A stretch of 64,000 nt of DNA from Leucoraja erinacea (Eukaryota), in contig NC_073416.1 of NCBI RefSeq assembly GCF_028641065.1, positions 6,262,001 to 6,326,000 on the forward strand. Direction: 5' to 3'. The position numbers and the translations under genes were made by a program. The notes beneath the pieces are model-generated. The model searched no databases, had not been told where the DNA came from, and saw only the letters and a list, made by a program, of their open reading frames with translations. The first letter of the stretch is position 1, and the number at the start of each line of letters is the position of its first letter. Shown here piece after piece: positions 22,279-64,000 of the stretch.

Positions 22279-23475
22279 TCAGTGAGGAATTGCCGTTATT
22301 CTCATACTCTGTGACGCAATTGGATATGTAACCATTGGAGTGGTGGCATGGCTTATGGTGATTCCTGGCAGTGCTTGTGCAATTGACACTGCCACTGGTG
22401 CAACAGAAACAGCCACCGGGGCCATGGATACTGGAGGTGCCATTCCCTGGGCGATGGTCTGGGCCAGTGCAGCAGGGAGGGAAGCAATTTCCGGGTTAAG
22501 ATGTTGTGCTGTTGGTGCAGCATTGCTAGGCGGTGCAGCAGAAGCAGTTGCCACTAGATCTTGCTGGATGACTGGTCGTGGTTGAAGTGCATGGCTACTC
22601 AATGTGGTGTGAGTCTGTGCTATACCATGGTTGTAATTGGTCAGCGTAGCCACAGCTGGTGCTGCCAGTATTTGCTCTGTGGCTGTGGGAGTGGAAGTCA
22701 GTGTCACCACCTTGGTTTGGTTGCGGAAATGTGCATTTTGCTCCAAGAGCACCTCATTAGTTGCCATCAAATTCGAGATCTGCTTTTTCAGTTCCTCAAC
22801 TCGCTTTCGGAGCATCAGATTCTCCTCTTCTAGAAATCGATAGTCCACAGGACGCGAGTTTGAGATGCTAAAATCATAACTTTCAAATCGTAAGCCATCC
22901 ACTCTTCTCCTCTTTAGAATATGGTCATAGTCAATATAGCGATCAGTCTCATAGAGGTCATCAAATGGGTCGTATCGTCGCACGACAGGAGAGAGCACTT
23001 GATCTCGTGCCAATCTCTCCAAAGTTCTATTTTCATACTCGTATTCATCACGTTTTAAGTGCCGAAATTTACATTTAGATCCTCGTTGACAGTCCCCTTT
23101 CAGGTAATCTCGGCAGATTGGAACCTCGCCTTTTTTAAAAGAAAGGTCAGAAGGTGAAAGGCCAAGACCCATGGCCACCGTAAGGCGTAGACGTTGGGGA
23201 AGCTCTCCTGATTTTTTGTAATGTTCCTCATCTTCCTTTGTCCCATGAATAAACTTGCAGTTGATACGAGTGCACTCCTTGTTCTGATAATCATGGCAAA
23301 AGACAAACTCATTTTTTTTAACACCCAAGTCGGACACCTCGTTAATGTCGGGGTGGTAGAACTTGCAGCGCTTGCCACGTTTGCAGACATTGCGCAGGAA
23401 GTCACGGCAAATATCATCTGAGCTGTGGCCAGCCTCGTCATTACCTCTGTTAAATAAATTATCTTTATCCGGCAT
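22279..23475 (-). CDS. ZC3H10: Zinc finger CCCH domain-containing protein 10 (398 aa, single coding exon)
   Basis: MPDKDN...CRDFLRNVCKRGKRCKFYH, CHDYQNKECTRINCKFIH, CRDYLKGDCQRGSKCKFRH, KRRR basic motif, coiled coil LEEENLMLRKRVEELKKQISNL, C-terminus VTYPIASQSMRITAIPH. True ATG at 23475 (the track starts at an upstream GTG); acceptor-like AGs near 23508 and 23523. Confidence 0.96.
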   Translation of the reverse strand: MPDKDNLFNRGNDEAGHSSDDICRDFLRNVCKRGKRCKFYHPDINEVSDLGVKKNEFVFCHDYQNKECTRINCKFIHGTKEDEEHYKKSGELPQRLRLTVAMGLGLSPSDLSFKKGEVPICRDYLKGDCQRGSKCKFRHLKRDEYEYENRTLERLARDQVLSPVVRRYDPFDDLYETDRYIDYDHILKRRRVDGLRFESYDFSISNSRPVDYRFLEEENLMLRKRVEELKKQISNLMATNEVLLEQNAHFRNQTKVVTLTSTPTATEQILAAPAVATLTNYNHGIAQTHTTLSSHALQPRPVIQQDLVATASAAPPSNAAPTAQHLNPEIASLPAALAQTIAQGMAPPVSMAPVAVSVAPVAVSIAQALPGITISHATTPMVTYPIASQSMRITAIPH

Positions 23476-25714
23476 CTTCACAGACTATTATTGTGCTTCT
23501 CAGCAACTGTATAGAAAAACATCTGAAAAAGAAAATCAAGGTACGTCTTTACAGAGAAGGAGGAAGTCACCCACAAAGCAAGTGTCACTTGAACCACTGC
23601 ATTTTGAGCTCAGCAAGCTGAACGACATTTGCGTGGGAAAAATAAAGGCTTCTAATTGTGTATGTCTGGTGCCAGCATCAAATATTATTACAAAATTAGT
23701 TGTAGAAGTTAAATACACTTCCCTTCGATTTGTCTACTCTAGATATTTGGGTAAACAGGTCCCATTGTAGCAGTGACACAATTTACTTCCCCAATAATTG
23801 GTTAATTTATTTTAGTAAATTATAGATTTTATTTTTGCAGCTACTTATGCCCATTAAGATTTTGTTTAAAATTTGCCATACTTATTTCATTTTGAACAAC
23901 ACAACTAAAAAAAGGTGTGTGTGTGTGTGTGTGTGCGCGTCTGTGCGTCCCCCCTCCCCCCACTTGTGGGTGCCCGTGTCCCCAACGCTCCCACATACTG
24001 CCTTGATAAGAGTTTTACGAGAAAATGTTTGCATCTTCAGCCAGCAAATATTTCCTGCCGTTATGGTCGCAGGGCTAAATATGATGCTAAGCTTACATAA
24101 TTAATTAAAGATGAGGCCAACTTGTACTGATTTTAATTGCAGTTGTCCTTAGCCCAAAGTAAAGGGGAAACATAGCCGGAGTTCCCCTTTCTGATTTCAA
24201 CTCAGTTATTTCTGCTGGGAAATACACAACTGTACACTGAAGATATTTTCCAGTACATTATTTCCATTTTAATACTTGAAATTTCACATGACTCCAGAAG
24301 CCAATCAAAACAAAATAGCCAATAGAGCGCAGAGCAAGCTTGCTTAAATCGCAATTTGATAATGACCGGATAATTTATTATAGCGAGACAGGTTAATTGA
24401 TAAATATTAACTACAATTGCAAGGAATTACAATGCCTGACAATAGTTAACACAACTTGGAAGAGGACTTTGGCACCCAACCAACAGGCAAGTGGAAGCAG
24501 TATCGGGACATTCCCTCCTTCTCTTTTCTGGGAGCTCTTTCCATCCAGTCGACTCCAACACAGCAAGATGTGGAGTACAGCATCATTAGATGTCAACATT
24601 AGGCCATAACTACCATGCCTCAAGATCACTGCAGTCTGCCAAGACAGCAAGAGATGCAGGGAGCAAGCAGTCTGATTGCTTTCCAATATTGTTTAAGGGT
24701 CCCTATTTAAAGTAATCTGTGGTCTCTGATTTACCAATAGATCTTGGCAGAAAATTTCACATCATAATCATGCCCTATGTAAAATTGTATTTCATGATTG
24801 TTTATTTATGCTCTCATTGTTATCTCGCTGAGCAGTAGATAATCATATTTTAGCTTAATCGTAATCCCCCATGATTCTGAAAACCTCCAAGGTTGTCCTT
24901 TGTCCTTCTATATTCTATCAGAAGGCTAGCATCCCAAATCCCCTTTTTTATTTAAAGAAGAGACAAATTGATAAAAAGGACTTATTTCAGAGATTATTTG
25001 CACAATTATCAAGGGTTGAAAGGTTTGAGATGTGGAGTTGAAACCTTTGTGTTCACTCAAGAGGGGCGAGATATTCTGAAGTGGCTGGAAGTGTGGATTT
25101 CTATAAAACGTTGAGCAAGATCTACCTCCCTTATCTGTACTTCTGTCCAAATGAATTGCAAGGAACCTTCCCAGAAGCCTTTGCTGCTGTTCCCTTCCTG
25201 ATGAACAAGCCTGCTACATCGGATCCTGACACAGAGCAGTCATTAAGACTTACAGTATTTTCAGAAATAATTGAGAAGTTGCTGCAGAATTCTGCATTCA
25301 TTTCTGTACAAATAAACAGTACAACAGCATACAAGATCAAAAACATTGGCAATTAAAAGCAGTTGCTTGAAAAGCACAACTTGTCAGTGACAAACTGCCT
25401 GTGCACACTGCTGACTTCTATGGCAAGTTTAAACTTACCACTTCTGGATTTGCCACTGGCAACTTGTCACCACTGGCAAGACGAACATTTACTACCCATC
25501 CTTAATAGACCCCAACAAGGTGGAGGCGAGTCACCTTCCAAACTTCTACAGTCCTTCCAGTGGATACAAGCCCACAATATTTAGGGTAGAGAGTTCCAAG
25601 GTTTAGACCCAATTAGTTTGAAGGAACTGCAATATATTACCAAGTCAGGATCGCGGATGACTGGAAGGAACCTGCAAACTATGGTGTTCTCATAAGTCTG
25701 CTGTCCTTTTGCAG

Positions 25715-26280
25715 GGGGCGTTGCAGAGGGTGGTCAAATCTGCCCAAACAAATCACAAATAACTGCGTCCCTGCCATTGAGGACATTTACATCAGCAGGT
25801 GCAAGAGCAGAGCCTCAAACATCATGAAGGACCCCACCCACTGGACTCTTCCCCCCCCCCCCCCCCCCCTCCCCTCATGGAGAAGGCTGCACAGCATAAA
25901 GGCCAGGACAACAAGGCTTAAAGTCAGCTTCTTTCCCGAGGCCGTGAGACTTTTAAACTCCCTACCTCACTGACTGAACCCTCACTACCTCAGTGAACTG
26001 TCTGCTGCTACTGCTGCTGCTATGGTCATTATTATGCTGCTGTCTTTTAACCATGCTGCTTTTTACCTTTTACTATTTATTCACAGGCTCATTATTATTT
26101 GGATTTTATTGTGGAAGGTTTTATATAAGTTAGAATTCATTGATGTCTTTACTGCACTTTATTGATGTCTTACTGCACTATTACGCTGCTCGAACCCGAG
26201 TACAAATTTCGTTCATGATTCATGTGGAAGCATGTTTTTATCGAATGATAATAAATAAATCTTAAATCTTAAAATCTTTT
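25715..26280 (+). mobile_element. Rex1/L2-like LINE 3' fragment
   Basis: ALQRVVKSA-like coding remnant, SFFPEAVRLLNS, and aataaataaatcttaaatcttaaaatctt tail. Confidence 0.75.
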
Positions 26281-29200: not shown

Positions 29201-29525
29201 TTATATGGATTTGTTCATCTCAAATGCCTAAAATAAATGGTTATTACCTGCCTCACTGCCAACATTTCTCAAAGTCCAAAATAAAAACAGAAAATGCTGC
29301 AATGCTTTGTCGGCTATGAAGTGTCTACAACTTGAAACATTAATTTAATTTCTCCTTCCACAGCCAATAACTGACTTGCTGAGTGGCTCCAGCATATTTC
29401 CAACATCTGCAGTTTAATTTCTTTCCTTAATTTTACCTTTTGCTTTCATACATTCTGCTCCTTTGAGCTTAGCATACTTTTACATCACAGACACATCCCA
29501 ATGGTGAAATCCATAACTATAAATA

Positions 29526-30226: not shown

Positions 30227-30890
30227 GTAGATTCTATTATGAAATCGATTTCACCTTACTACCTCTTCTCCCAGTTCCAAAACCTCTCATAACTTGGCTT
30301 CAAATCACACTTTGAGCCACCTCATTTAACTCTCTCCGAGAGTCCAGTCTCCTCTCTATTATAGACTAGTCTGGTGAAAGGTCTCGACCCAAAACATCAC
30401 CTGTTCCTTCTCTCCAGAGATACTGCGTGACCCGCTGAGTTACTCCAGCATTTTGTGTCTATCTCCTCGCTATAAAGTTTATTGGGACATTTTATTATAT
30501 TAAAAAGGTTTGACATAAATACGAATTAATGTACTAACAAAAAATAAAGCATTTTAACCGCAGTCTTACTCCAACTATTAATAGCAAATATCGAATATTT
30601 TGTGACTCTGGAGCAATCCAAGAATTCTTTAAACAATGTTTATTAAGTTTGTTACTATGAATCAAACCGCATAGAGTAACAAACTTGCTAAGGAAGGTTT
30701 CGAAGGCTGTTATGGGATTTCTAGGCCTCAGCATTCTGTTGCAGGGAACAACTCCATACGCAAGTAGAACTAAATCCCGACTAAAAATATTTAAATTATA
30801 GGCGTCATTAACAGAGTGGATTGGAACAATTACAAAATTGACAGAAACCAGGGACATATTTACAAACACGGTTAAGCTCCTTTTACTCAC

Positions 30891-30958
30891 TCCTCCAAAC
30901 ACAACGAGTACCACACAGGTCCTCCCAGACAAGAGCGACTTAGAGTCAAATAGCTGCA
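30891..30958 (-). other. ZC3H10: Putative non-coding first exon of ZC3H10
   Basis: Minus strand reads gtcgctcttgtctgggaggacctgtgtggtactcgttgtgtttggagga|gtgagt (strong donor); homologous to 31124-31177; 5' end unknown. Confidence 0.6.
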
Positions 30959-31123
30959 CTTGGCTGGAATGCTTAATTTCTCACAATGGGATGATGTATT
31001 TCAAGTTAACGTTGTTCAATTGAATATCCTCAAGATATTTTTTTCAAAGTAAACGCCTGAGCATATTGTACTGGAATACACATCGATAACAGATGCCTGC
31101 AGCTCCCAACAGCGTCTTCTGCC
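30940..31123. promoter_or_regulatory. Putative bidirectional promoter between ZC3H10 and its paralogue
   Basis: Short spacer between two divergently oriented homologous exon-like blocks, in a locally CpG-retaining region (~30550-31900). Confidence 0.5.
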
Positions 31124-31177
31124 GTCGCTCTTGCCTCGGAGGACCAGAATGGAAGCTCGTCGTGTTTGGAGGACCAA
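31098..31177 (+). other. Putative non-coding first exon of the ZC3H10-like paralogue
   Basis: gtcgctcttgcctcggaggaccagaatggaagctcgtcgtgtttggaggaccaa|gtgagg; inverted homologue of 30891-30939. Confidence 0.55.
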
Positions 31178-33765
31178 GTGAGGAGGGAGAGAGGGGAGAG
31201 GGGGGGGGGGGAGGCTAAATAGTGTAAGTGAATGCGTTGTCCTTTCTCCTTTTGTTATTGATCGAGTTTATTCCAATGTCGGTAAACTGTTTCTATCAAT
31301 ATATATATCTTTGAGAAATAGAACAATGTTTAGTTTCCATCTGTGCGCTGGAATATATCGGTCCGTGTGAATCACTTGAGGCCTAGGAGCGCAGTTGAAG
31401 CCTCGCGCCAAGTTCGAGAACTTTCCGTCGCAACCCCACCAAAACTGTCAACATCCAGGTTTCCTCATGGCGGTAGCCTAAGAACAAGGATTGTTTAAGG
31501 AAGAGAAGTCACGTCTAGTGGTTAGGTTAAACCCTATGGCCGTCTTGGAAAAAATGGAATAGTGAAATCCGGACACAGAATGAAAGTCCAATGAATGAAC
31601 CATTACAAAATGTCCAAGATGAGTGTAGTTTACCCATCACGGGATTCCCACAGAATTTATAAATCCGTATCAAGATATGTCAGTTTTTAAACCGTTTGCT
31701 CCAGGCGCCGGCTTCTTTTTGATATCATGGACCGATGGTGCTGCCCATCTTCAACCGAGTGGTTGTGCAGCATTTGGAGCAGTTGGGAATGTCGCTGAGT
31801 TTGGGGCAAAAGAAGATCACCGCTGTTCAGTCAGGTGCTAAATGCGTTGTTAAAATGAAAGTGGAGATTTTGCCGCCTGCCATGTTGTAATTCAGCAGTG
31901 TTTGGCGAGTGAAGTTGAACCCTTCCCATTCCATCATGTTGTGCAGTCTGAAGAAGGGTTTCGGCCCGAAACGTTGCCTATTTCCTTCGTTCCATAGATG
32001 CTGCTGCACCCGCTGAATTTCTCCAGCACTTTTGTGTACCTTCGTGCAGTACTTTCACCGGTTGTGTTTAACCACTTAATCAATGGGACTCAAACTATGT
32101 TCTGTACATGTGATTGAACAATAAATGTTTAACCAGTTGACTTTTTAAAAAGAACATTGGCTACTGGATTTAAAAAAAACAATTTCCCAATGATCGCCAC
32201 TTTGACATTTACCGTCTTCCTCCTTAGGTCACTGCATCTTCTATCTCTCAAGAGGAATAATCAGCAAGGTTCACTTGGCCACTTGAAGGTATGAGGGATG
32301 GAAAATGATCAGATTTTCTTTTCTCTTTGCTATTCTTTGAGGCAATAACAGATTTGTATTTTGTTACCATTTCCATTTAGCGATTAACATTGGCATTTCA
32401 CGATGTGAACACTTTTATTCTTCCTCCCTCTTTGTCCTGCTTGGTTTGGCTCCTTAATGCTCCTAAATGTGATGAATTGTGAGAGGTATAGCCTTTCACA
32501 TAGGAGTTACCCAAGCGATCATGTTAAACTAGGTGCACATATTGATTGCTACAGAGGCGCACAGCCAGGGTTAATCCTGCCTTTGCCCGGTGCCCATATG
32601 TGAGACCGCCTTTTGCCTGAGCAGATGAGATATTATACATTGATGGTCAGTACCCCATTATGCATTGCTTGGTGCGACACAGGAACCCACTAAAGTCTGA
32701 ATATCTCTGCGACACTTGCTGTAGGTGAAGGTAGTGCGCTGAGAAGATGCAAATTTGCTCATCTCTGTTTTCTCTGACCTCAAAACTAACTGGACTTGCT
32801 GCTTGGGGTTGAGAGGGAAAAATAGATCAGCTATGATCGAATGGCAGAATGGCCTAATTCTGCTCGTATGTCTATGGTCTTATGCTGCTCTTTGCTTCTT
32901 CCATTGCCCTTTTGAACAGTTGACCTCTTGAGATCATGACTGTTTGTGGCTATTTCCAAATTGCTGGTGCCCACCATCATCATATTGTATTTGCAATTAT
33001 CCTTGTTGTGGCGATATGGACATCAGCTGGTTGTGACCCCATGGACAATTTGTCATACAAAAGTGTTGTTGAAAATATTGCTATCATCCATCTCACAAAG
33101 ATAATTGCTCTGTTGCAGATGTAGTTAGTTTAGTAACAAATGTTTGTGGATGAACTTGGACTATTCCGGGCCCTTTGAGTACCCTTGTCCTGCCAGAACA
33201 TGCCAAGAATACATCTGTATAAACGTAGCTTTTGTGCTTTTGATCGGGCTGTATTGCTACACTATCGTAAAAACAAGTAACGGGCAAGTACAGTAGTACA
33301 ACATACTGTGCCATCTGTATTTATAAGGTGAGAAAATGATCCTCCCTTGCCTGCTGTGAGTTCAGAATCACAAATTGGATTAGAAACTAGTTGGGATTAG
33401 TGACCCAAATACTGAAAATTTAAAACTCGCAAAAGCACAACACAAAATAAAATTTCACCATCCAATATGTCAATGTTATTTTGGGGGGAAAAAAAGCTAA
33501 GTATACTGTTCTTGGAAGGTTGAGTGATACTTTAAATAGTTTGTCAGATATTTATTATGTTCTGTCCATCTTTGAGAAAATAGACCAATAATTTATATAT
33601 TTTATTTCAGTCAATTCAGATTTCATGCTTTATCATTCAGACAGTAACAGACCTCTTAGAAGGATGTAGAGTCGTGTATTCCTCTCAGATATGGTGTTAT
33701 CGGACTCATCCTCCTGAATACAAATAGAACTAGTGCAAGATAATCAAAGAGGAAAGATTAGGTAT

Positions 33766-34048: not shown

Positions 34049-34247
34049 GAGATATGCAAAGTTCCATAAGAATAACTTGTAGCTGTTCAAGGAAAACTGG
34101 TGTTATATGGGCATTGACATTGAGATAGAAAAATGTGGTATTGGAAACATTGAACATAAAGAAGTAGAGGACGTATTAAAAAGGTCTGGCAAAAGTGGAT
34201 AAATTGGTTGATCAGGATAAAATGTATTTCAAGCCCTTTTATTAGGT

Positions 34248-35278: not shown

Positions 35279-35356
35279 TGATATTAAAAACATTTTTTTT
35301 TAAATTAAAAAATGCAGCAGCCGACATAAATCAGGCTCTGACTATAATTTTCTAAT

Positions 35357-38680: not shown

Positions 38681-39200
38681 CTTTTAATGAGGTCGGCTGA
38701 CTCTGAGTTTAATCAGCACTACTTCTTCATAATCTTCTTTAACATGTTGCTTCAGGAATTTGTTTCTAGTACTGATTCTAACGTCCTGCATTTACAAATT
38801 ACTATAAAAATCACTTGCAGTATGAATTTAATTTTTTCCATGCGTGTACTGTCTGGAGTGCAATAATCGAGAAGACATGTTTACTTTGTTATGCCGGTGT
38901 CTTTTTCAGGAAAACTCAAAGCATTGGTATTTGCGATATTAAAAGCAAAACTGCCGACTTAATACTGCTTATCTCTTTTTAAATATTAATATAAACCTTG
39001 ATGTTCCACTGGTAACTTGCTGTAAGTATTTTCTATTGAATTAACGATGTAGGAACAGCTACAATATTTTGTGAGAAAGGGATTAAGCTAAATTACTTTG
39101 TAGATGAATCTCTTATTTATTGTAAAAGACCTGGCTTCTTTTTCTTTTACAGTTGTTTATTGAGAGCCTTGGCTGAGTAGCGCAGAAATATTCTGGAAGC

Positions 39201-40739
39201 ATGTCCGAGAACGACACTGATAATTTAGTCAACAGCGGCAAAAATGAGCCTGGCAAGAGCAAACGGAATGTTTGCCGAGACTTTCTGCGCAATGTCTGCA
39301 CTCGTGGTAAGAATTGCAGGTACTTCCACCCTGACAATGTTGAGGCCTCCGACCTTGCCGACATAAGGAACGACACTGATAATTTAGTCATCATTACCAA
39401 TGACGAAGCTGGCAAAAACAAATCGTACATTTGCCGAGACTTTCTGCGCAATACCTGCAGCCGTGGTAAGAATTGCAGGTATTTCCATCCAGATGATATT
39501 GAGCCCTCTGTCCTCGCTGATGTAAGAAACGACATTGATAATTTAGTCAACTTTGGCAATGATGAGGCTGACAAAAGCAATCTGAATATATGCCGAGACT
39601 TTCAGCGGAATCTCTGCAATCGTGGTAAGAATTGCAGATATTTTCACCCAGATGATATTGAGGTCTCCAACCATGCTGACCTAAGTGATGACGCTGATAA
39701 TTTCGTGAATAATAGCAAATTTGATGCGAGCAAGAGCAAAAGGAATGTTTGTCGTGACTTTCTGCGCAATGTCTGCACCCGTGGTAAGAATTGCAGGTAT
39801 TTTCACCCGGATAATGTTGAATCCTATGATGTAGGTGATATGCGGCATGAGTCTATCTTTTGTCAGTACTTTCAAAATAGCAAATGTACCCGTGAGAACT
39901 GCACGTTCATTCACGGGACAAAGGGTGAAGAGAATTATTACAATAAAACAGGAAAGCTTCCTTCCCACTTACAAAAGACAGTGGCTGTGACATTTGGGCT
40001 CTCGCCCTCCAATTTGCCTCTTATTACAAAGGAAGTCCCATTCTGCCGTGACTTTCTAAAAGGCAAATGTCGAAGAGGATCCAAGTGTAAATTCCAGCAC
40101 TTGAAACGCGATGACAATGATAAGACCAGTATAGAAAATGTGTCACAAAATAAAGAAGCTTCTCCTGAGATCTGTAGATATGACCGTTTGGATGACCTGT
40201 ATGAGACGGAGAAATGTGATGTTGACCAAACTCCAAAAAGGAAAAGAACGGAGGGTCTACGGTTTGAAGTATTTGATTACAGCATCCCCAATCTGCGTCC
40301 AGTTGAAATGAATTTTTTGGAGGAGGAAAACCATATGCTCAGAATGCGCAATGAGGAGCTTAAGAAGCAGGTGTCAAGCCTAAAGATTACAAATGAGGTA
40401 CTTCTGGAGCAAAATGCTGATTTACGCAAGCAAGTGAAACTGGGGATCCTGACCACAGGGACTGACCCAACACAATCACCAGCTATGCACGCTGTTACCA
40501 ATTATAATCATAGTATAGTGGAGACTCACACCACCCTGAGCAACCAGGTCGTGAGATCACAGTCTATTTCTCATCAAGAATTGATAGCGCAAGCTAGAGC
40601 TCATAATGCTTTATGTTCTGAAGCTACATCCCAAAGTCCACCCTGTCTTAGTGCTGCTCTCTCGACACCTTATGCCCAAGGGGTGGCTTCACCAGTTTCA
40701 ATCGCACAATTGCCATCTCAGTTGCACCATTGGCAGTGA
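39201..40739 (+). CDS. ZC3H10-like paralogue with six CCCH fingers (512 aa)
   Basis: Four C-x7-C-x5-C-x3-H fingers, then CQYFQNSKCTRENCTFIH, CRDFLKGKCRRGSKCKFQH, PKRKR and coiled coil LEEENHMLRMRNEELKKQVSSL; acceptor ttttcttttacag| ending at 39152. Confidence 0.9.
   Translation: MSENDTDNLVNSGKNEPGKSKRNVCRDFLRNVCTRGKNCRYFHPDNVEASDLADIRNDTDNLVIITNDEAGKNKSYICRDFLRNTCSRGKNCRYFHPDDIEPSVLADVRNDIDNLVNFGNDEADKSNLNICRDFQRNLCNRGKNCRYFHPDDIEVSNHADLSDDADNFVNNSKFDASKSKRNVCRDFLRNVCTRGKNCRYFHPDNVESYDVGDMRHESIFCQYFQNSKCTRENCTFIHGTKGEENYYNKTGKLPSHLQKTVAVTFGLSPSNLPLITKEVPFCRDFLKGKCRRGSKCKFQHLKRDDNDKTSIENVSQNKEASPEICRYDRLDDLYETEKCDVDQTPKRKRTEGLRFEVFDYSIPNLRPVEMNFLEEENHMLRMRNEELKKQVSSLKITNEVLLEQNADLRKQVKLGILTTGTDPTQSPAMHAVTNYNHSIVETHTTLSNQVVRSQSISHQELIAQARAHNALCSEATSQSPPCLSAALSTPYAQGVASPVSIAQLPSQLHHWQ
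39210..39845 (+). repeat. Coding tandem repeat, 4 x 159 bp (53 aa), one CCCH finger per unit
   Basis: Units start at 39210, 39369, 39528 and 39687 (NDTDNLV / NDTDNLV / NDIDNLV / DDADNFV). Confidence 0.95.
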
Positions 40740-41639
40740 CGCAATCGCTCCCAGAAATTGCCATGAATTATACCATCACTCAAATGGTCAGTTATCCAAA
40801 TGCATCACAAAATATGAAGTTCCTCTGTCGTGCAGAGGATAGTTGAGATTAGAAGGCATTTAATTTGAAGCTTTACAAGAGATTTCTATTTCTTATTGGT
40901 TCCCAGGGCAATTGCAAAAAGTGAGTCAAGTATGATTGTTAAAGAGGGAGTCTCACCATCACCAACCCTTTTGCAAAGTCAAAAATGAAATGATGAGAAT
41001 TTGTGTTTTCTGTCTCGTTTGTTGCTGTTTAACTCGTCTGGAGAACAGGTTGCGCAGAATTGTACCTCAGCAGTAGTAGCAAATGGAAGTTGAAACGTGC
41101 TTCAATTTGCAGCCATATATGTCGCAAATTTCTTTTGGTGGGGGGGAAGAAAGATTGAATTGAACTCAAGTTTTTGAATTCTTTGAAACCTTTTTTTGAT
41201 TTGCTCATGTTGTAAGCTCTGGTGCAAATGAAAGCAAAGTCTTTGACAGCGCATTGCAATGCCCACACCAACTCAAGCTTTCCAACTGCAGCAGCAGTGG
41301 GATAAGGTTTTGTCTGCAAATATGGCTGCTTTCTTTTGCTCATGTAAAATTGGTTTCAATCAACATCAAAACATCAACTTTCTAAAAACACTTGTACATG
41401 CGCTTAAAGAGCATTGTGCCTTTACAACTTTTTTAATCGCTTTTTTTTAAGACACAAAATTATTATAAAACTACAAAAAATTTACCCTCATTCACTTCTT
41501 CATACCACCCAACCAAAAATATAATCCTCTGCTGCTTTGATTGTGGTCAGAGCAGAAATTAAAGAATGCAGAAAATGACGCCATGGCTCCCTTTTCTCCC
41601 TCTTGTTGGAGAACTGTCTTGCAGCATAAATGCAATTAG

Positions 41640-48203: not shown

Positions 48204-50956
48204 GTAGGAAAGAATTGCAGATGCTGGTTTAAATCAAAGGTAGACACAAAATGCTGGAGTAACTCAGCGGGACAGTCAGCATCTCGGGAGAAAAGGAATG
48301 GGTGACGTTTCGGGTCGAGACCTTCCGACTAATGTCGGAGTGCGCGGGACAGAGATAGAATGTCGTCAGAGACAGTAAGACTGGTGGGAGAACTGGGAAG
48401 GGGAGATTTTAATAAATCAAACCTCAAGGAGGTCATGCCGAACTTCTACCAACACATCACGTGTGCCACCAGGGGGGAGAGAACTTTGGACCACTGCTAC
48501 ACACCGTTCAGGAAAGGCTACAAGGCCGTTTCACTCCCTCCCCTAGGAAAATCTGACCACGCTGCTATTTTCCTGTTGCCGGTGTATAAACAGAGGATAG
48601 TTCGGGGAGCGGTAGAGACGAGGGACGTAAAGCGGTGGTCCGACCAGTCAGAGGCCATGCTGCAGGATGCACTGAGTGATGTCGACTGGAATATGTTCGA
48701 AGCAAGTTCCAGTGACGTCAGTGAGTTCGCGGTAGCAGTCATGGACTTCATCGCAACAATAACCGCCAACATCGTCCCCACGGTAAGGGTAAGCACCTTT
48801 CCGAATCAAAAACCCTGGGTAGACAGGTCTGTTCGTGTGGCCTTGAATGCTCGCACCGCTGCCTACAACTTGGGCCTGGCATCAGGAAACATGGACGTCT
48901 ACAAGGCAGAGTCCTACCGACTGCGAAGGGCGGTGAAGGACGCAAAGAGAAGGTACAGGGACAAGATGGAGTTACAGATGGAGCAGCAGGACACCAGAAG
49001 CCTGTGGCAGGGGCTACGGATTGTAACCAACTACCGAAGCACCCCTCCCTCACCCGCATGTGCCGGCACCTCCCTAGCTGACGACCTGAACTCCTTCTAC
49101 GCTCGTTTCGAGAGGGGCAACACCACTCCAGGTCTGCCGACTATCGACAATACCGCCAGGGGGCTGGCTACCGAAGCTGAAGGGAGGAGTGTGCACACAT
49201 TCTCGCTGTCCGAGCACGACGTGAGGAGGGCACTGACACGGGTGAACACGAGAAAAGCTGCAGGCCCCGATGGCATCTCGGGGCGAGTACTCAAGTCCTG
49301 TGCTACGCAGCTAGCTCCAGTGCTCACTACATTATTCAACCTCTCCCTGGACAAGTCCGTGGTCCCTGCCTGCTTCAAAAAATCCATCATTGTACCGGTA
49401 CCAAAAAATGCCTCCCCAGCCTGTCTGAATGACTACCGTCCGGTGGCCCTTACCTCGGTAGTCATGAAATGCTTTGAGAGGCTGGTGAAGAATCACATCT
49501 GCGCCTTCCTCCCTCGGAACATGGACCCGTTGCAGTTCGCATACCGTCCGAACAGGTCCACGGACGATGCGGTCTCCCAGGTCTTGCACACCGCTCTCTC
49601 CCATCTGGACAGCCAGAAGGGGGGCTACGTGAGGATGCTGTTCATAGACTACAGTTCAGCCTTCAACACGATAGTCCCCACCAGACTGGCCGGGAAGCTA
49701 ATGGAATTGGGGCTCAACACCTCCCTGTGTGCCTGGGTCCTGGACTTTCTCACTGCCAGGCCCCAGGTAGTCAAGATGGGAGGGAATACATCGAAGTCCC
49801 TCACCCTGAGCACAGGATTGCCCCAGGGTTGCGTTCTCAGCCCCCTATTGTACTCCCTGTACACACATGACTGTGTGGCTAGGTTCAGCTCCAATTCAAT
49901 AATTAAGTTTGTTGATGACACTGTGGTGGTGGGCCTGATCTCAGACAACGATGAGAAGGCCTAACCGGGAGGAGGTGGCTGATCTAGCACTCTGGTGCCA
50001 GGATAACAGCCTCCTCTTGAACATCAAAAAAACAAAGGAGCTGATCATGGACTTTAGGAGGGCACATCATCCGAGGACGTACACTCCATTGAGTATAAAT
50101 GGGGATCCTGTGGATAGGGTGAACTGTTTTAAATATCTGGGAGTCCACATCTCTGAGGATATGACATGGGCATCACACGCCTCAGCACTCGTGAGTAAGG
50201 CAAGGCAGCGCCTTTACCACCTCAGGCAATTGAGGAAATTCAGAGTGTCTCCGAGGATCCTCCAGTGCTTCTATGCAGCGGTGGTGGAAAGCATCTTGTC
50301 CGGTAACATTACCATCTGGTTTGGGAATTGCTCTGCCAAGGACAAGAAGGCTCTGCAGAGAGTAGTGCGTTCGGCCGAACGCACTATGGGAACTTCACTC
50401 ACCCCCCCCTGCAGGAACTATACAACAGGAGGTGCAACTCCAGAGCAAACAAAATCATGAGAGACCCCTTCCACCCCTGCAACGGTCAGGCAAACGCCTC
50501 CGTTGCCATGCGGTGAGAACGGAGAGGTTGAGAAGGAGTTTCTTCCCAGAGGCAATTCGGACTGTAAACGCCTATCTCACCAGGGACTAACTCTACAGAA
50601 CGTTTTTCCTTCTATTATTTATTATGTAAAAGAATATGTGTGTTATGATTGTGTTTATAATTTGTTTGGTTGTTTTGTTGTTTGTCTTTTGCACAAAAAT
50701 CCGCGAGCATTGCCACTTTCATTTCACTGCACATCTCGTATGTGTATGTGACAAATAAACTTGACTTGACTTGACTTGAATGGAGAGAGGGAGGGAAAGC
50801 AAGGGCTATTTGAATTTAGAGAAGTCCATGTTCATACCACTGGGTACAAACAAGCTACCCAAGCGAAATATGAGGTGCTGTTCCTCCAATTTACGCTGGG
50901 CCTTCACTCTGACAATGGAGGAGGCCCAGTACAGAAAGGTCAGATTGGGAATGGGA
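48204..50956 (-). mobile_element. Penelope-like element 3' end (48204-48400 plus 50777-50956), split by a LINE insertion
   Basis: The minus strand of 50805-50955 encodes SHSQSDLSVLGLLHCQSE/QRKLEEQHLIFRLGSL/PSGMNMDFSKFK* (with frameshifts), typical of the GIY-YIG C-terminus; continues into the dispersed terminal repeat. Confidence 0.75.
48401..50776 (+). mobile_element. 5'-truncated Rex1/Babar-type non-LTR retrotransposon (end of APE endonuclease plus RT), frameshifted
   Basis: GDFN...LDHCY...SDH, KAAGPDG, NDYRPVALTSVVMKCFERLV, FIDYSSAFNT, PQGCVLSPLLYSLYT, KFVDD; frame break at ~49962 and at the poly-C near 50402; AATAAA(CTTGA)n tail. Confidence 0.93.
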
Positions 50957-52450: not shown

Positions 52451-54189
52451 AGTGTTGTTACAATGATTGGGGCTCAGCAAGTGGCAGCATTCTCATTGTT
52501 AGAGTAGTCCTACTCTTTGGATTAGATACTAAAAAGAGCAGCTATTTTGACTTTTCACTGTTTAATCTGGCCCTTGTTTTCTCCATATTTCTTCATGGCT
52601 ACTGTATCTATCTTGCTGTCTTGAGTCAAGATTCAGTCGGTAGTTTATAAAAAAATTCAAAGTTGTGGAAACATGCCTTGAGCATTAGTCTGTTTGACTA
52701 CCATTCGCTCCAATTCCTAACATGATCATGATTTTTTTTTTCCTGATGCACTTCCAATTGTTGGATAGCTGCTACATTATGCCTGCACAGGCCCCTGGTA
52801 CCTTCCCAAAAGCTACTACTACACCACAACTTGCCTGCACTCACTTTTCTTCCTTGATTATTTTTATTACTAAGAACAGTGCTGTCTGCACTTAGTATAT
52901 ATTTTGTTAGGGCTGACCACCATTTGGATCACAGCCACACAGAATCCGATGGTGGAGTTCCTCGCTGCTGAGATCGCAATTTAAACTGAAATCACCATTC
53001 AAATTCTGCAGCTCAGAATCTGGGACACCACTGGAAAAGGGAAGATGAGTCATTTTTAAATATGTTAAGTTTGGTTCAGTAATAATTTTAATTCAATTAT
53101 ATATCTATTTTTATATTTTTACTTGAATATTCTTAGTTTTGAAACTCATAAAATCAAAGCAACAAGAAACAGGAATAGGACAATTGACGCTTTGACTTTG
53201 TTCTGTCGTTCATCAAGATCTTTGTTAATTTTGCATTTTGTCTTCATTTCCCTGAGTTATATTCAGTAAAATTTCGACAATTCAGCTTATTCATTGTTTT
53301 GATAGTGCTGAACTGGCAGAATTTACAGACTACTGAATGTTATTGATATTAATTACTTCAACATTCTTTCCATTCACTTTTTAAATCTTATACAGTATGA
53401 CAAACGTTCTAGTGAATCAGGTAAAGTGAAAGGGAATGTGGGAACTGGGGCCCAGGTGAGCATAAGGGGAGAGGGGACCTTAATGAGTGAGAGAGAGCAT
53501 GGAATCTGGGGCTTGGGTAAATGAAGACGAGAGCAGGAATCCAGGCCCCAGTGAATGACAAATATTATTTGGTGGGCCAGAAGCCGAATCAAGATTTCTG
53601 AATGGTTGGATCGCAGGTTATTGGTTTTGCTGTAGATATCCATAATTCTCTTATTATCCAGAAATCTATTGATCATTTTGAATGAACACATTGACTGAGA
53701 CCCCAATATCTTCAGAATGGAGTAATTTATCATCTTGGTACTAAATGACTACCCCTTATTCCGAGAGTTCTATTTCTTATCATGAATACAAGAACGGCTC
53801 CTTTAAACATTAACAGTTCGTAAACTGTCATGATTTCAAAAGTACCTAGCATTTCTGTTTTATGCATCAAAGTTTATATTACAACATAGAGCAGTTGGGG
53901 AAAAAAAGGAGGAAGGCACATTCCAATTGGGTTTGCTTTTGCTATTTTAACACGGGTAGTCAAAATCGATGTTTAAATAAACTTCAGTGCTTGCATTTTC
54001 CTGTTTAAAATGTGGAAGGATTGGTTATATTGCAGAGAATACATCTGCACTCTAGATTTAATCTAAAGGGGGTTCACTGATTTAAAATATTATTGGAAGG
54101 TCACATAGAAAATAATGCATTTTTAAATGACCGATCCAAACTTCATTAAAGTTGGCTGTTTGTCATTTCTTTGGTATTGCCAGGCAATG

Positions 54190-54650
54190 CCAGGCTTCAC
54201 TGTGTCTGCCGTCAAAGGTGTTGGTGTTGCCTTCAGCCGGCGGGCGGCAGGGGGCCGGGGTTTCCTCTTGGCTCGGAGGACCAGTCACGAAGTTGCCCTT
54301 TACTGGGAGGACCTGCGTAGAGCCTCTTTGTGTCGGAGCTGTGAGGGAAGAAGCCGAGCCGAAGTGTATAGGTATCCCAGCCCTGGTTTGTGAGTTTTCA
54401 TGCACTTTAATGTACCCGTGGCATTCTCGATTTGAATGTGCAAACGTTGTGCGGAGAGAGTCCGCATTTGTCTGCGGCCGGGAGGCGTTTTAATTGTAAC
54501 AGGAAGTCGAGGCCTAAAGGCGCCATTTGCGGCCTTAAATCCAAGCAAAGCGATAGTGAGGTTCCTGTTGCTTCTCACAGCTACAATCTGGAGCGACTGA
54601 GTCTGTGTTCATCAAAGCACATGCTTAGATATGTAGATCGACGATAACAA
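54190..54650 (+). promoter_or_regulatory. CpG-rich putative promoter / first exon of the third ZC3H10 copy
   Basis: Contains ctcttggctcggaggaccag...ggaggacc (54265-54313), homologous to the two exon-like blocks near 31 kb; ETS-like CAGGAAGT (~54500) and YY1-like GCGCCATTT (~54520). Confidence 0.5.
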
Positions 54651-54729
54651 TTAAGAGCGACAATAGCTCCTATTTTGATTGTACCCCTGATACTGTAACC
54701 CCCTTTTTTCGAATGCATTTTATTAAGAG

Positions 54730-56768
54730 AAATGGAGGACATTTAAAGGGGAAATTTTAAGAGTACATAATCTTTGGAAAGAGCCCTGGTTTTCAAGGGA
54801 AATTGGACATCTTGTTCGGAAAAAGAGGGAGATCTACAATAATTATAGGCAGCATGGAGTAAATGAGGTGCTTGAGTATAAAGAATGTAAAAATAATCTT
54901 AAGAAAGAAATTAGAAAAGCTAAAAGAAGATATGAGGTTGCTTTGGCAAGTAAGGTGAAAGTAAATCCAAAGGGTTTCTACAGCTATATTAATAGCAAAA
55001 GGATAACGAGGGATAAAATTGGTCCATTAGAGAGACAGTGGACAGCTATCTGCAGAGCCAAAAGAGATGGGGGAGATATTGAACAATTTATTTTCTTCGG
55101 TATTCACCAAGGAGAATGATATTGAATTATGTGAGGTAAGGGAAACAAGTAGAGTAGCTATGGAAACTATGAGAATCAAAGAAAAAGAAGTACTGACATT
55201 TTTGAAAAATATAAAAGTGGATAAGTCTCCAGATCCTGACAGGATATTCCCTAGGACATTGAGGGAAGTTAGTGTAGAAATTGCAGGGGCTATGACAGAA
55301 ATATTTCAAATGTCATTAGAAACGGGAATAGTGCCGGAGGATTGGCGTACTGCACATGTGTTCCAATGTTTAAAAAGGGTTCTAAGAGTAAACCTAGCAA
55401 TTATAGACCTGTTAGTTTGACTTCAGTGGTGGGCAAATTAATGAAAAGGATACTTAGAGATAATATATATAAGCATCTGGATAAACGGGGTCTGATTAGG
55501 AACAGTCAACATGGATTTGTGCCTGGAAGGTCATGTTTGACTAATCTTCTTGAATTTTTTGAAGAGGTTACTAGGGAAATTGATGAGGGTAAAGCAGTGG
55601 ATGTTGTCTATATGGACTTTAGTAAGGCCTTTGACAAGATTCCTCATGGAAGGTTGGTTAAGAAGGTTCAATTGTTGGGTATTAATGCAGGAATAGCAAG
55701 ATGGATTCAACAGTGGCTGAATGGGAGATGCCAGAGAGTAATGGTGGATGGCTGTTTGTCAGGTTGGAGGCCGATGACTACCTCGGGGATCTGTGTTGGG
55801 TCCACTGTTGTTTGTCATGTACATCAATGATCAGGATGATGGTATGGTAAATTGGATTAGTAAGTATGCAGATGATACTAAGATAGGTGGTCTTGTGGAT
55901 AATGAAGTAGATTTCCAAAGTCTACAGAGAGATTTAGGCCATTTGGAAGAATGGGCTGAAAGATGGCAGATGGAGTTTAATGTTGATAAGTGTGAGGTGC
56001 TACATCTTGGCAGGACAAATCAAAATAGGACGTACATGGTAAATGGTAGCGAATTGAGGAATGCAGTTGAACAGAGGGATCTTGGAATAACTGTGCACAG
56101 TTCCCTGAAGGTGGAATCTCATGTAGATAGGGTGGTAAAGAAAGCTTTTGGTGTGCTAGCCTTTATAAATCAGAGCATTGAGTATAGAAGTTGGGATGTA
56201 ATGTTAAAATTGTACAAGGCATTGGTGAGACCAATTCTGGAGTATGGTGTACAATTTTGGTCGCCCAATTATAGGAAGGATGTCAACAAAATAGTGCAGA
56301 GAGATTTACTAGAATGTTGCCTGGGTTTCTGCAACTAAGTTACAGAGAAAGGTTGAATAAGTTAGGTCTTTATTCTTTGGAGCGCAGAAGGTTAAGGGGG
56401 GACTTGATAGAGGTCTTTAAAATGATGTGAGGGATAGACAGAGTTGACATGGATAAGCTTTTCCCATTGAGAGTAGGGAAGATTCAAACAAGAGGACATG
56501 ACTTGAGAATTAAGGGACAGAAGTTTAGGGGTAACATGAGGGGGAACTTCTTTACTCGGAGAGTGGTAGCTGTGTGGAAAGAGATCCAGTGGAAGTGGTG
56601 GAGGCAGGTTCGATTTTATCATTTAAAAATAAATTGGATAGGTAAATGGATGGGAAGGGAATGGAGGGTTATGGTCTGAGTGCAGGTAGATGGGACTAGG
56701 GGAAAATAAGTGTTCGGCACGGACTTGTAGGGCCGAGATGGCCTGTTTTCGTGCTGTAATTGTTATAT
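54730..56768 (+). mobile_element. 5'-truncated CR1-type LINE RT region, multiply frameshifted
   Basis: KSPDPDRIFPR, NYRPVSLTSVVGKLM, QHGFVPGRSCLTNL, YMDFSKAFD, LGPLLF, KYADD. Confidence 0.93.
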
Positions 56769-57113
56769 GGAGAGACCACTTCCAATGTGGTCTCCATGTA
56801 ATGGGCAAATGGATCTTCGCCAGGAGGGAATACCTGTTTGGTGATGGAGGGAAGGAAGTATGTGATACTTGGATCATCGGAAAATGAACGTAAAGGCTTC
56901 ATTAACCTGTTGTTGTAATATTTAGAATGGGAACATTTTATTGGTTTCTATGAATTGCAGGTGATCTCCTCTGGCGTTGCTCATTTAAAGAAAAATTGCA
57001 ACTGAGTCTGCTTCTTTCCCTGTCTTATCCTCTCCACCTGCCACTCTATTGCCTCCCTTTTGTGTGTGTGCCACATCTTGTATTGTTTTTGCCTGTTAAC
57101 ATACAATCTTTTG

Positions 57114-57758
57114 GCTTTTGGTGTGCTGGCCTTTATAAATCAGAGCATTGAGTATAGAAGTTGGGATGTAATGTTAAAATTGTACAAGGCATTGGTGAGG
57201 CCAATTCTGGAGTATGGTGTGCAATTTTGGTCGCCTAATTATAGGAAGGATGTCAACAAAATAGAGAGAGTACAGAGGAGATTTACTAGAATGTTGCCTG
57301 GGTTTCAGCAACTAAGTTACAGAGAAAGGTTGAACAAGTTAGGCTTTATTCTTTGGAGCGCAGAAGGTTAAGGGGGGGACTTGATAGAGGTTTTTAAAAT
57401 GATGAGAGGGATAGACAGAGTTGACGTGGAAAAGCTTTTCCCACTGAGAGTAGGGAAGATTCAAACAAGGGGACATGACTTGAGAATTAAGGGACTGAAG
57501 TTTAGGGGTAACATGAGGGGGAACTTCTTTACTCAGAGAGTGGTAGCTGTGTGGAATGAGCTTCCAGTGAAGGTGGTGGAGGCAGGTTCGTTTTTATCAT
57601 TTAAAAATAAATTGGATAGTTACATGGACGGGAAGGGAATGGAGGGTTATGGTCTGAGCGCAGGTATATGGGACTAGGGGAGATTATGTGTTCGGCACGG
57701 ACTAGAAGGGTCGAGATGGCCTGTTTCCGTGCTGTAATTGTTATATGGTTATATGGTT
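57114..57758 (+). mobile_element. Second CR1 3' fragment of the same subfamily
   Basis: Near-identical to 56144-56768; (atatggtt)n tail. Confidence 0.9.
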
Positions 57759-58601: not shown

Positions 58602-59320
58602 GGGTGATTTCACGAAAGGTCACTGGATCATAGATCCTCCCCCACGTGACCGCAAAATTTAACTGGGGTACAAACGTCACTTCCAGTACATGTTATTGAT
58701 GCTGAAAACGCGTACTTTCAAACCAGTTAAAAACCGCGAAAACTGTTAGTTTTTGAGCTGTAAATAACTGTGCCAGTCGGGGTGACTGCGAGGCACAGCT
58801 ATCTTACTTTAGAGTCCAGAAGATAAAGAAAAACGAAGGTAAAGACAAGAGAGCGCTGAAGGGAAAATAACAGCGGAAGTTTTTTGGCCGTGCAGATATA
58901 AAGATTGAAAATATCGGGAATTATCGCGTTTGCTCACTGCATTTCATCAAAACTAAGGCATTATTGATGTTTTGATGAAATGCAGTGAGCAAACGCGATA
59001 AAATCCCGATATTTTCGATCTTTATATCTGCACGGCCAACAACATCCGCTGTTATTTTCCCTTCAGCGCTCTCTTGTCTTTACCTTTGTTTTTCTTTATC
59101 TTCTGGACTCTAAAGTAAGATAGCTGTGCCTCGCGGTCACCCCGACTGGCACAGTTATTTACAGCTCAAAAACGGGCTGTTTTCGCAGTTTTTAACGGGT
59201 TTGAAAGTGCGCGTTTCTAGCATCAATAACATGTACCGGAAGTGACGTTTGTACCCCAGTTGGATTTTGCGGTCACGTGGGTGAGGATCTATGATCCAGT
59301 GACCTTTCGTGAAATCACCC
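58602..59320. mobile_element. Foldback / MITE-like palindromic element
   Basis: ~352-bp inverted arms (58602-58953, 58969-59320), 15-nt loop, termini GGGTGATTTCACGAAAGG / CCTTTCGTGAAATCACCC, flanked by TATA on both sides. Confidence 0.9.
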
Positions 59321-59574
59321 TATATCTTGCTGAATAAAAAAAGTTGATCAGCTAGCACAAATTGATTTTTCTCCCAGGGGACGATTAAAATTTGTAAAAT
59401 ATGAAACACGGGGATAGCAAAAATGCCAATGTCTGGTTGCAATCGCAGCATCTTGTGTGCTTATGGGACAAGGGTTTGCAGTGGTATATGGTTTTCAGAG
59501 ATTTTCTGTCATTTTACAAGAATGGTGATAAGGGAGGATCGGGGCTTAGAAACACTGGCTAATCCACCAATGTC

Positions 59575-59870
59575 ATTAGTTCAGTTTAGTGATACAGCGC
59601 GTAAATAGGCTCTTTCGCCCACCGAGTCTGCGCCGACCAGTGATCCACACACACTAACACTATCCTACACACACTGGGACAATTTACAATTATACCAAGC
59701 CAATTAACCTACAAACCTGTACGTCTGGGGTGTGGAAGAAAATCGGAGATCCTGGAGAAAACCCACACATGTCACGGAGGGGACATACAAACTCCGTTGC
59801 AGACAAGCACCTGTAGTCAGGCTCGAACCCGAGTCTGGCGCTGTGAGGCAGCAACTCTACTGCTGCCTGA
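59575..59870 (-). mobile_element. HE1/V-SINE-like tRNA-derived SINE
   Basis: Minus strand has head gagttgctgcctcacagcgccagactcgggttcgagcctgac, V-domain-like ggagtttgtatgtcccctccgtgac...gggttttctcc, and a CR1-like tail. Confidence 0.75.
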
Positions 59871-62800: not shown

Positions 62801-63870
62801 TAGTTGTGGGGTAGTTGTGGTTGGAAGCTGCTGCCTCACAGCTCCAAGCACCTGGGCTCATAGCTGTTTTCAGATTATCTCTTATTTTCCCATGGTAGAC
62901 AAAAATGTTGGAGAAACTCAAGAGGCAGCATCTATGGAGCAAAGGAAACGGGTGACGTTTCGGGTCGGGACCCTTCTTCAATTTCTTCTTATTTTCCCCA
63001 AAGTATTTCTGGTAGGTTAATTAGCTACTCTAAATCACCCCCTAATTATAAGTAAGTGGCAAAGAGAATCAAAGGGAAGTTAATAAGTGAGGAGAAGATG
63101 CTGGAATACGGGGCAAGTAAAGTGGTAGTATGAGACGAGTGACGTTGTCCTCCTGGGAGGTAACTTTATAAGATAAAGTAGAAAGAAATGGGCAAAATTT
63201 TCTGATTTAAAAAAATAAAATTTAAAAAAATTAAAATTAAACTTTCCTCCAAATCTGTAAATTGTACGTAGATGGACTTTTATTTTTCTCTTGTTTATTA
63301 ATTAGACATTCCCAGATGGCTCAGTTTAAGATGACCAGTTGAGCTATATAGCCTATAAGTCCCAAGTCTTATCTCTGTTGTGAGTTATCTAATCACAGCT
63401 AGCTTGGTGGTAATGGAATGTCACGTTATCTTTAGGTGAGTTCTCCAACAGGGAGTGAAAATTGAATCAGTCTCTTTCCAGATCACAATCCAGTGGCCTC
63501 TTCTGGCACTGCATGTGTGAGCATGTTTGGCTTTGATGTCCTTGCATGAGAATAGCTTCCTAATCGTTGATGTTTTGGGGGCCACATGTAGGGCAAAGCT
63601 GGGTGAGGAACAAGAAACACCCTAAATCTAATACACCTATGTTGTCTTCATGAGTGGAAAGAAGAAATTTGAGACAAAGTAGATTGTTGAAATTTTATTG
63701 TTTATTATTGTATGTACGTCTTCCATTAAATTGATGGAAATTTAAGCACTGATATGGGTGAATTGGTAGACTTGCAGTTAATTCCCTTTGTCTTTGTAAA
63801 GATATAACTTGTTTTTCTTTTGCAGTTCCTTGCTGAGCATCTTGAATGAACAGCGCTGAATTAAACTAAA

Positions 63871-64000
63871 ATGTCAGGTACAGATCATGTAGTCAACACT
63901 GGCAACAACATGACTGCCAATAGCATTGATATTTGCTGAGAACTCGTGCAACTTCTGCATCTGCGCCAAGCGCTGCAAGTTCTGCTACCCAAAGGCAAAT
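63871..64000 (+). pseudogene. Third ZC3H10-like copy, 5' part only (window ends); first finger disabled
   Basis: Acceptor ttttcttttgcag| ending at 63825; MSGTDHVVNTGNNMTANSIDIC*ELV then, after a 2-bp deletion, NFCICAKRCKFCYPKAN, aligning to ZC3H10 ...DICRDFLRNVCKRGKRCKFYHPDIN. Confidence 0.8.

Follow-up and report, generated by a model that had tools for sequence, protein, structure and literature searches.

INTRODUCTION

Work on ZC3H10 in mammals treats it as a single gene, and its roles in microRNA processing, UCP1 activation, and interferon repression are contested. Zinc fingers 1 and 2 (ZF1 and ZF2) of mammalian ZC3H10 bind RNA, DNA binding depends on its basic leucine zipper (bZIP) region, and S126 serves as a p38 site (PMC6911170). 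Repression of interferon-stimulated genes requires the nuclear localization signal (NLS), each finger, the coiled coil, and R89 (PMC13375009), and the RNA motif of the human protein is AGUGCAG/GCAGCG (PMC11612968). We have analyzed a 64,000-nucleotide stretch of the skate Leucoraja erinacea (contig NC_073416.1, positions 6,262,001 to 6,326,000 of the forward strand; G000:C40:6262001-6326000), hereafter the window, which holds part of a cluster of ZC3H10 paralogues. Positions are those of the window or, where stated, of its extension.

The skate copies resemble vertebrate ZC3H10 (human, mouse) in their single coding exon, basic NLS, coiled coil, and place upstream of ESYT1, and in their fingers, which follow C-x7-C-x5-C-x3-H in fingers 1 and 3 and C-x7-C-x4-C-x3-H in finger 2; the copy that we call A keeps all of these, including the GLSP site and the tail. 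They differ from it in forming four tandem intact copies of varied architecture, the most conserved of which, A, is inverted relative to ESYT1. The RefSeq "ZC3H10-like" models of sharks, rays, and chimaera are the same genes, grouped under one automatic name that does not distinguish the four types. The advance is therefore one of recognition and interpretation, not sequence discovery. No description of the cluster was found in the literature searched, subscription papers and bioRxiv supplements (including the list of 29 conserved X genes) lying outside that search. The cluster is real, old, and conserved, and apparently unstudied. New here are the cluster of four genes and its roots in chimaera, the identity of its pseudogene, a promoter copy, a retrocopy, and the likely X position.

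A second system for comparison is the muscleblind-like (MBNL) family, whose proteins have two packed finger pairs and are not known to have a coiled coil. Finger 3 of MBNL1 binds GC steps, and its Phe202 stacks on GC (PMC9780971). Several like fingers reading GC steps, as in MBNL1/2, may serve as a model for one skate copy, B.

A CONSERVED CLUSTER OF ZC3H10 PARALOGUES

Four intact ZC3H10 paralogues (A, B, D, and E) and one pseudogene (C) lie in one row, with ESYT1 next after E. A, B, and C fall in the window and D and E beyond position 64000; F is a dispersed paralogue. A stands head to head with B, and B to E are oriented like ESYT1. The initial annotation of the window had marked three ZC3H10-homologous starts, at 23475 (−), 39201 (+), and 63871 (+), each behind a similar splice acceptor. 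Open reading frames (ORFs) and an alignment of C confirmed the starts, and the acceptors share a common pattern, TGTAAA(A)GA followed by a pyrimidine tract and by CAG directly before TT at the junction. DNA-level duplications including one inverted pair, as had been proposed, are borne out by the common intron position, acceptor, and 5′ exon, and reading beyond 64000, as had been advised, turned up the intact D and E. The set had been described as one conserved, one remodeled, and one decayed member; these do exist, but the intact members number four and C is of the D type.

A whole-genome search gave 12 matches, comprising A, B, two more places on the window's contig (C40), and one each on contigs C36, C31, and C14, the last being weak (E 7.7e-4). 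No additional ZC3H10 copy was found across the 222 kb of the cluster region examined. Pfam places CCCH fingers (three cysteines and one histidine) in A and B; the top named matches of B, D, and E are ZC3H10 or ZC3H10-like, and the protein cluster of A is named likewise. Homology to the ZC3H10 family runs over the fingers, NLS, and coiled coil, and the trees agree. A and E have the three CCCH fingers of the family, whereas B has six and D two, and the latter two are best classed as variants, not canonical members.

Copy A is a single coding exon of 398 amino acids (aa) at 22279 to 23475 (−; ORF 23475-22279), with ZF1, ZF2, ZF3, a GLSP p38-type site, a KRRR NLS, a coiled coil, and a full low-complexity tail, and it is the sequence-conserved ZC3H10 of the cluster. 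The basic NLS and bZIP-like coiled coil are present in every aligned row of A, B, D, E, and F; ZF1 and ZF3 are kept in all paralogues, and finger 2 is missing from D and F. The p38 site (mouse S126, GLSP) and the tail with its conserved C-terminal motif are both found in A. B keeps the site and has a diverged tail (cut in skates), and D and E lack both. In Rhinoraja, two slightly different A-type proteins (P0008 and P0009) come from one contig, possibly a recent duplication of A.

B has orthologues in 18 named shark and ray species (a count for which 15 of the 19 members of the largest cluster are listed), and A, D, and E occur over the same range. The best matches of B are proteins of 545 to 557 aa from sevengill shark, electric ray, bamboo shark, and sawshark, at 82 to 87% identity. 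Between the skate and the sevengill shark (Heptranchias), identity is 94% for A, 85% for B, 92% for D, 86% for E, and 74% for F; between the skate and chimaera it is 76% for A and 73% for D. Paralogues in the cluster are 46 to 61% identical to one another, with synonymous sites near saturation (proportion of synonymous differences, pS, 0.66 to 0.71 versus 0.23 to 0.33 for nonsynonymous ones, pN). Within a species the copies lie on contigs of equal size with close accession numbers, and in the brownbanded bamboo shark the gene models of A, B, D, and E follow one another directly. For species other than the skate, gene order is read from accession order and contig size.

By these comparisons A, B, D, and E are conserved across sharks and rays and are neither specific to the skate nor products of misassembly. 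A skate-specific expansion was rejected because of the orthologues across sharks and rays, and a misassembly of B because of its orthologues in the 18 species and its presence in independent runs; misassembly of the extra copies had already been thought unlikely from their divergence, and orthologues in a distant shark are 85 to 94% identical. A retro-origin of B to E was rejected because the intron acceptor is retained. The view that the extra copies arose through misassembly or are young duplicates in neutral decay can point to a dead C, a frameshifted skate B, and a perfectly identical 681-bp promoter copy, all described below. It is scarcely credible as a general account, given the spread of B, of D, and of E across sharks and rays, the divergence among paralogues, and the independent runs with B; it is refuted for A, B, D, and E and could hold for the 681-bp block alone.

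The expansion had been called lineage-specific, which holds for cartilaginous fishes but not for the skate alone: A, D, and a third copy are found in chimaera, and B and E in sharks and rays only. In chimaera, D (215 aa), a two-finger copy of 248 aa, and A have consecutive accessions on one 5.3-Mb scaffold, and F is on another scaffold; no chimaera B or E appeared among the 120 matches listed. The initial annotation had also allowed that the same cluster might already be annotated across jawed vertebrates. Automatic "ZC3H10-like" models do exist in cartilaginous fishes, but bony vertebrate matches showed no such cluster, except for two neighboring copies in axolotl. The axolotl pair (P0194 and P0269), two ZC3H10-like genes with near-consecutive accessions on one chromosome, one of them with a newt sister, reads as an independent salamander duplication.

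The chimaera split dates to about 410 to 420 million years ago. In quick trees each paralogue forms one clade, with Shimodaira-Hasegawa-like approximate likelihood ratio test (SH-aLRT) support of 100 for B, 100 for E, 98 for D, and 83 for A; B joins E (86 to 87) and then D (91 to 94). P0067, which groups with axolotl, was left out of the second tree. The quick trees gave no order among A, F, bony-vertebrate ZC3H10, and the group of B, D, and E, and the first duplications may lie before or after the bony-vertebrate split. If the (B,E),D grouping is right, the B/E line would predate the chimaera split and would then have been lost there, although long branches may mislead.

SIX FINGERS IN COPY B

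The coding sequence of B, at 39201 to 40739 (+), encodes 512 aa with four ZF1-type fingers, ZF2, ZF3, the NLS, and the coiled coil. Its six CCCH fingers, the number given in the initial annotation, lie at residues 25, 78, 131, 184, 221, and 282, and the first four fall within a 159-bp tandem repeat at 39209 to 39820 (77% matches) whose unit is 53 aa. Four such units are present in 17 of 18 B proteins and three in the sawfish B, two Hemiscyllium B fragments being excluded from the counts. Each unit is 85 to 92% identical to the same-position unit across species and 63 to 82% identical to neighboring units. Concerted evolution of the units was rejected, since identity within species is only 0.5 to 2 points above that between species. 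Among the 150 matches listed from a word-free search of 1.84 billion representatives, the B cluster alone spans the whole of B.

The best alignment of the B unit among solved structures is to MBNL1 finger 3 (chain E 1.3e-8), and as we read that alignment the unit has an aromatic residue at the position of Phe202. B differs from MBNL in that four units of one type, spaced 53 residues apart, precede ZF2 and ZF3, and in that its C-terminal two thirds are ZC3H10. Assignment of B to the MBNL family was rejected, as only single fingers align and the best stretch is 29 residues. Structure prediction for whole B gave a mean predicted local distance difference test (pLDDT) of 32 (5 sequences) and was not used.

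A 1-base frameshift near 40709 has swapped about 45 conserved end residues of B for about 9 others. The ancestral end is still legible in another frame up to the old stop (40709 to 40846, +), with 82% identity to Heptranchias residues 504 to 548. The same truncated end is present in two other Logan proteins, Rhinoraja B retains 548 aa, and a contig of run X1 at 40530 to 40771 spans the site without a gap. Taken together, these sequences mark the frameshift as a real, lineage-limited change.

Co-folding covered A and B. Their coiled coils are predicted to pair in register, with a score of 0.61 versus 0.00 for the best of 3 controls; the runs agree in at least 92% of contacts, and the partner pLDDT is at least 81. 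The mark used was reached by 51 of 78 solved versus 2 of 108 mismatched microbial pairs and by 71 of 105 solved versus 2 of 126 unrelated eukaryotic pairs. A model of the first 260 residues of A has a helix at 212 to 259 (pLDDT 81 to 96), and its fingers and coiled coil are not confidently packed (predicted template modeling score, pTM, 0.30).

COPIES D, E, AND F

Copy D (229 aa) lies beyond the window at G000:C40:6334732-6335421 (+; 72732-73421 in extended coordinates) and has ZF1, ZF3, the NLS, and the coiled coil, with no tail. Copy E (282 aa), at G000:C40:6358483-6359331 (+; 96483-97331 extended), has three fingers, the NLS, the coiled coil, and a short tail of its own, and its protein is identical to records of two rajid skates. 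D was seen on 62 contigs and E on 85.

Like the axolotl pair, paralogue F (301 aa, G000:C36:1403483-1404388, +) is a further ZC3H10 duplicate. It has two fingers and is arranged divergently to an Fpg/Nei glycosylase gene about 14 kb away, and it is present from chimaera to skates. F, like D, has no finger 2, but its tail is complete, it is on a different contig, and the tree separates it from D, so finger 2 was likely lost twice.

FIRST EXONS AND TRANSCRIPTS

The match on contig C31 is a broken, partial processed retrocopy of A in which exon 1 is joined directly to the coding exon. It lies at about 5090 to 5570 (−) of L032 (G000:C31), within a haem-peroxidase (PTGS-like) gene, and is cut off at a coding A-run. 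Its junction fixes the 5′ untranslated region (UTR) intron of A at 30890 to 23523 (−; 7368 bp, GT at 30890 and AG at 23523), and as a processed copy it shows that A is transcribed in the germ line. It is a second AG, at 23507, that corresponds by homology to the acceptors of B to E. An upstream ORF (uORF) of 14 codons at 23522 to 23478 (−) opens with an ATG at the upstream acceptor and ends two bases 5′ of the main ATG; use of the acceptor at 23507 would bypass its ATG.

The noncoding exon 1 of A spans 30891 to 31080 (−), where the retrocopy homology ends, and includes a conserved 50-bp block at 30891 to 30939. An RNA-like contig of run X7 at 30899 to 31079 carries 141 further letters and, if spliced at the A junction, would overlap the next contig of the A coding exon by 30 letters (31-letter words assumed). 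An inverted homologue of the A block at 31124 to 31177 (+), 84% identical over 50 bp (E 8e-9), is likely a first exon of B. The two blocks are back to back and CpG-rich (CpG observed/expected 0.85 in 31001 to 31500), and the B block is 44 bp from the mapped 5′ end of A. The 84% identity between 30891-30939 and 31124-31173 persists despite near-saturated synonymous sites in the genes and may reflect either strong constraint or, with the inverted arms separated by 185 bp, conversion between them.

Three homologous upstream blocks had been placed 7.4, 8.0, and 9.6 kb before the starts. The distances stand, as does the homology of the A block to the other two, but that between B and C is weak and the third block belongs to the 681-bp copy of the D promoter. 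Local scores were 74 for A-B, 67 for A-C, and 43 for B-C; none of 300 shuffles reached any of them, but among 983 random windows 10 or more equaled or exceeded the B-C score. The block at 54.3 kb (in 53967 to 54647) is about 75% identical to the A block over 57 bp. No first exon of E turned up in a search with a profile built on the exon-1 block.

Runs X1 and X7 are presumed to be RNA, which is a guess; X1 has zero depth in four unique intronic bins where run X15 has 1.9 to 6.6. The coding exon of B begins with a 5′ UTR part at 39153 to 39200 (+), after the acceptor AG at 39151-39152. At 39151 the X1 and X7 contigs leave the genome, with 28 and 25 foreign letters upstream, and an X15 contig continues through, a pattern that suggests splicing. 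No splice joint was listed in the joint table, which repeats swamped. An X1 contig also covers 31581 to 31847 (+), where a possible donor after 31834 would suit an AG-ending exon joined to B.

These data bear on the idea that the copies are biochemically alike and act as homodimers, kept by a split of expression between tissues or stages such as germ line and embryo, with changes of architecture being secondary. Retained duplicates often divide their expression in this way, each of A, B, and D has a first-exon block of its own, X1 covers B and not the A coding sequence, and D and E are seen on many contigs. Yet X7 contains both A and B at similar depth, and the loss of ZF2, the loss of the tail, and the four fixed finger-1 units have been conserved for hundreds of millions of years; moreover, deletion of any finger of human ZC3H10 abolishes function in one assay (PMC13375009). 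We consider this explanation unlikely, though well short of negligible.

PSEUDOGENE C AND A COPIED PROMOTER

Pseudogene C occupies 63783 to 64000 (+), and its homology extends about 540 bases beyond the window end. It retains the acceptor and the ATG at 63871, which a stop at 63937 follows after 22 codons, and it has a finger-1 frameshift and further stops. The sole other genome match of its acceptor and start region is D (67%, E 1.4e-10). C against D scores 271, and the best of 100 shuffles reached 100.5; the C protein scores 42 bits to D, 28 to A, and 26 to the 248-aa chimaera copy, and C and D have the finger-2 deletion in common. On these scores C is a decayed copy of the two-finger D type and does not derive from A or B. 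It may also be the orthologue of the intact 248-aa chimaera copy, which fits the gene order, but C scores higher against D.

Between B and C, at 53967 to 54647 (+), lies a 681-bp copy of the D promoter, first-exon block, and intron start that is 100% identical to G000:C40:6332603-6333283 (70603-71283 in extended coordinates), with zero mismatches. The stretch has two copies genome-wide; their flanks share no homology, and the introns of C and D share none except at the acceptor. Since this copy is perfect while C is only about two-thirds identical to D, the promoter copy must be very recent. It may be the product of gene conversion with D as donor, of a new insertion, or of a misassembly. If real, it could drive a noncoding transcript over C or mark ongoing gene conversion. 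The interval between B and C also holds remnants of reverse transcriptase (RVT_1) of the long interspersed nuclear element (LINE) type at 48360-50460 and 55366-57750, and short inverted-repeat elements are numerous throughout the window.

CHROMOSOMAL POSITION

ZC3H10, ESYT1, and MIP all lie on human chromosome 12. On the left, the cluster is bordered by a MIP-family (aquaporin) gene, whose first exon is at 475 to 873 (+; PF00230, E 5e-38). On the right, ESYT-type exons lie on the plus strand 62 to 82 kb 3′ of E, at about 159 to 179 kb in extended coordinates; they were located with the non-ZC3H10 portion of P0027 and P0268, both of which are fused gene models.

The shark X has its homologue in a part of human chromosome 12 (PMC10620051). 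In the electric ray Narcine the copies lie on a contig of 103,180,129 bp, and the chromosome carrying the ancestral X block is exactly 103,180,129 bp (10.1101/2025.02.26.637739). Contigs of 16.39, 16.41, 28.81, and 73.08 Mb that carry the copies agree with the ends of published X ranges. Five markers are present on all 13 X chromosomes, an Nramp2-like gene among them, and sharks and rays have a common X ancestry at 265 to 349 million years (10.1101/2025.02.26.637739). All eight Nramp matches fall on C40, as does 1 of 23 matches of IGFBP, a weak marker. The cluster is thus likely X-linked, sharing its chromosome with published X markers.

A dosage-sensitive X-linked unit, in which incomplete compensation leaves females with two sets and males with one and which contributes to sex determination or sex differences, would suit this likely X block. 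X genes are about 1.5-fold female-biased, and sex determination has been proposed to be driven by X dose (PMC12318234). The cluster, however, is older than the elasmobranch X, being present in chimaera, female bias is common to other X genes, and ZC3H10 was not found in the searchable supplements of the sex-chromosome papers; we regard such a role as highly improbable.

PROPOSED MECHANISM AND ITS WEIGHT

The explanation that we favor, and to which we assign an even chance, is an ancient tandem cluster, likely X-linked, of proteins predicted to dimerize by their coiled coils and likely to differ in binding, with B likely binding GC-motif RNA in a multivalent manner. Tandem and inverted duplications at the DNA level, next to ESYT1, would have started before the chimaera split. 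The D/C line would have undergone deletion of ZF2; D would have lost the tail and E exchanged it for another; and in B the 159-bp finger-1 unit would have multiplied to four before the shark-ray split, every unit being retained afterward. From here on we infer function: ZF1, ZF3, the NLS, and the coiled coil, kept in all copies, would provide nuclear entry and pairing, and A would fill the canonical ZC3H10 role. B, likely co-regulated with A from the back-to-back promoter, would add four ZF1 modules and thereby a higher avidity for RNAs with repeated GC motifs. D, which lacks ZF2, the tail, and the p38 site, and E, which lacks the tail and the p38 site, may be tuning or damping partners.

Several observations weigh against this explanation. 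The skate B lacks the conserved end of the tail and is more changed than that of Rhinoraja (85% versus 89%), and in the epaulette shark (Hemiscyllium) the annotated B comes in two pieces, of 180 and 335 aa; B may be partly dispensable. The donor at 31178 does not suit the exon joined to B, whose end appears to be AG, so that co-regulation of the two genes by the common block stays a proposal. Coverage of B in X1 comes without the A coding sequence, and the raw RNA run X21 covered neither gene, although with about 6/100 of the run read this is uninformative. The co-fold of A and B indicates compatibility and not binding, as coiled coils resemble many solved structures and the benchmark was made without close relatives. 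A Foldseek fold search gave no match at E ≤ 0.001, and no MBNL-like finger packing was seen. The two reports on promoter function conflict on the role of the ZC3H10 fingers (PMC6911170, PMC13375009). With regard to X linkage, the horn shark (37.8 Mb) and whale shark (12.2 Mb) contigs fall outside the stated X range of 16.4 to 28.8 Mb.

The cluster might instead have diversified as a brake on the interferon response, its copies repressing different interferon-stimulated promoters or sensing different RNAs. Genes in immune conflict usually evolve fast and with turnover, and this cluster is slow-evolving and stable in number; D, moreover, lacks both ZF2 and the arginine at the R89 position. That arginine (marmoset numbering) is kept in A, B, and E, and human ZC3H10 does repress interferon-stimulated genes, needing the NLS, all fingers, the coiled coil, and R89 (PMC13375009). 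We judge this account improbable.

An extended form of the dimerizing cluster would have the four X-linked subunits heterodimerize, with B reading repeated GC-motif RNA in a muscleblind-like manner and the mix of dimers depending on sex through incomplete dosage compensation, a system absent from bony vertebrates. In its entirety this is a long shot, but if true, it would give the cluster a place in the dosage-based sex determination that has been suggested for these fishes.

IMPLICATIONS

Sharks and rays have kept natural counterparts of the finger and tail deletions made in the laboratory (finger 1 in four copies, finger 2 deleted, and the tail deleted) for about 300 million years under selection, in part since before the chimaera split. 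These natural ZC3H10 variants permit direct tests of the role of each finger and of the tail. A stable four-gene cluster of regulators on a likely X block also offers new candidates for the study of sex-biased expression.

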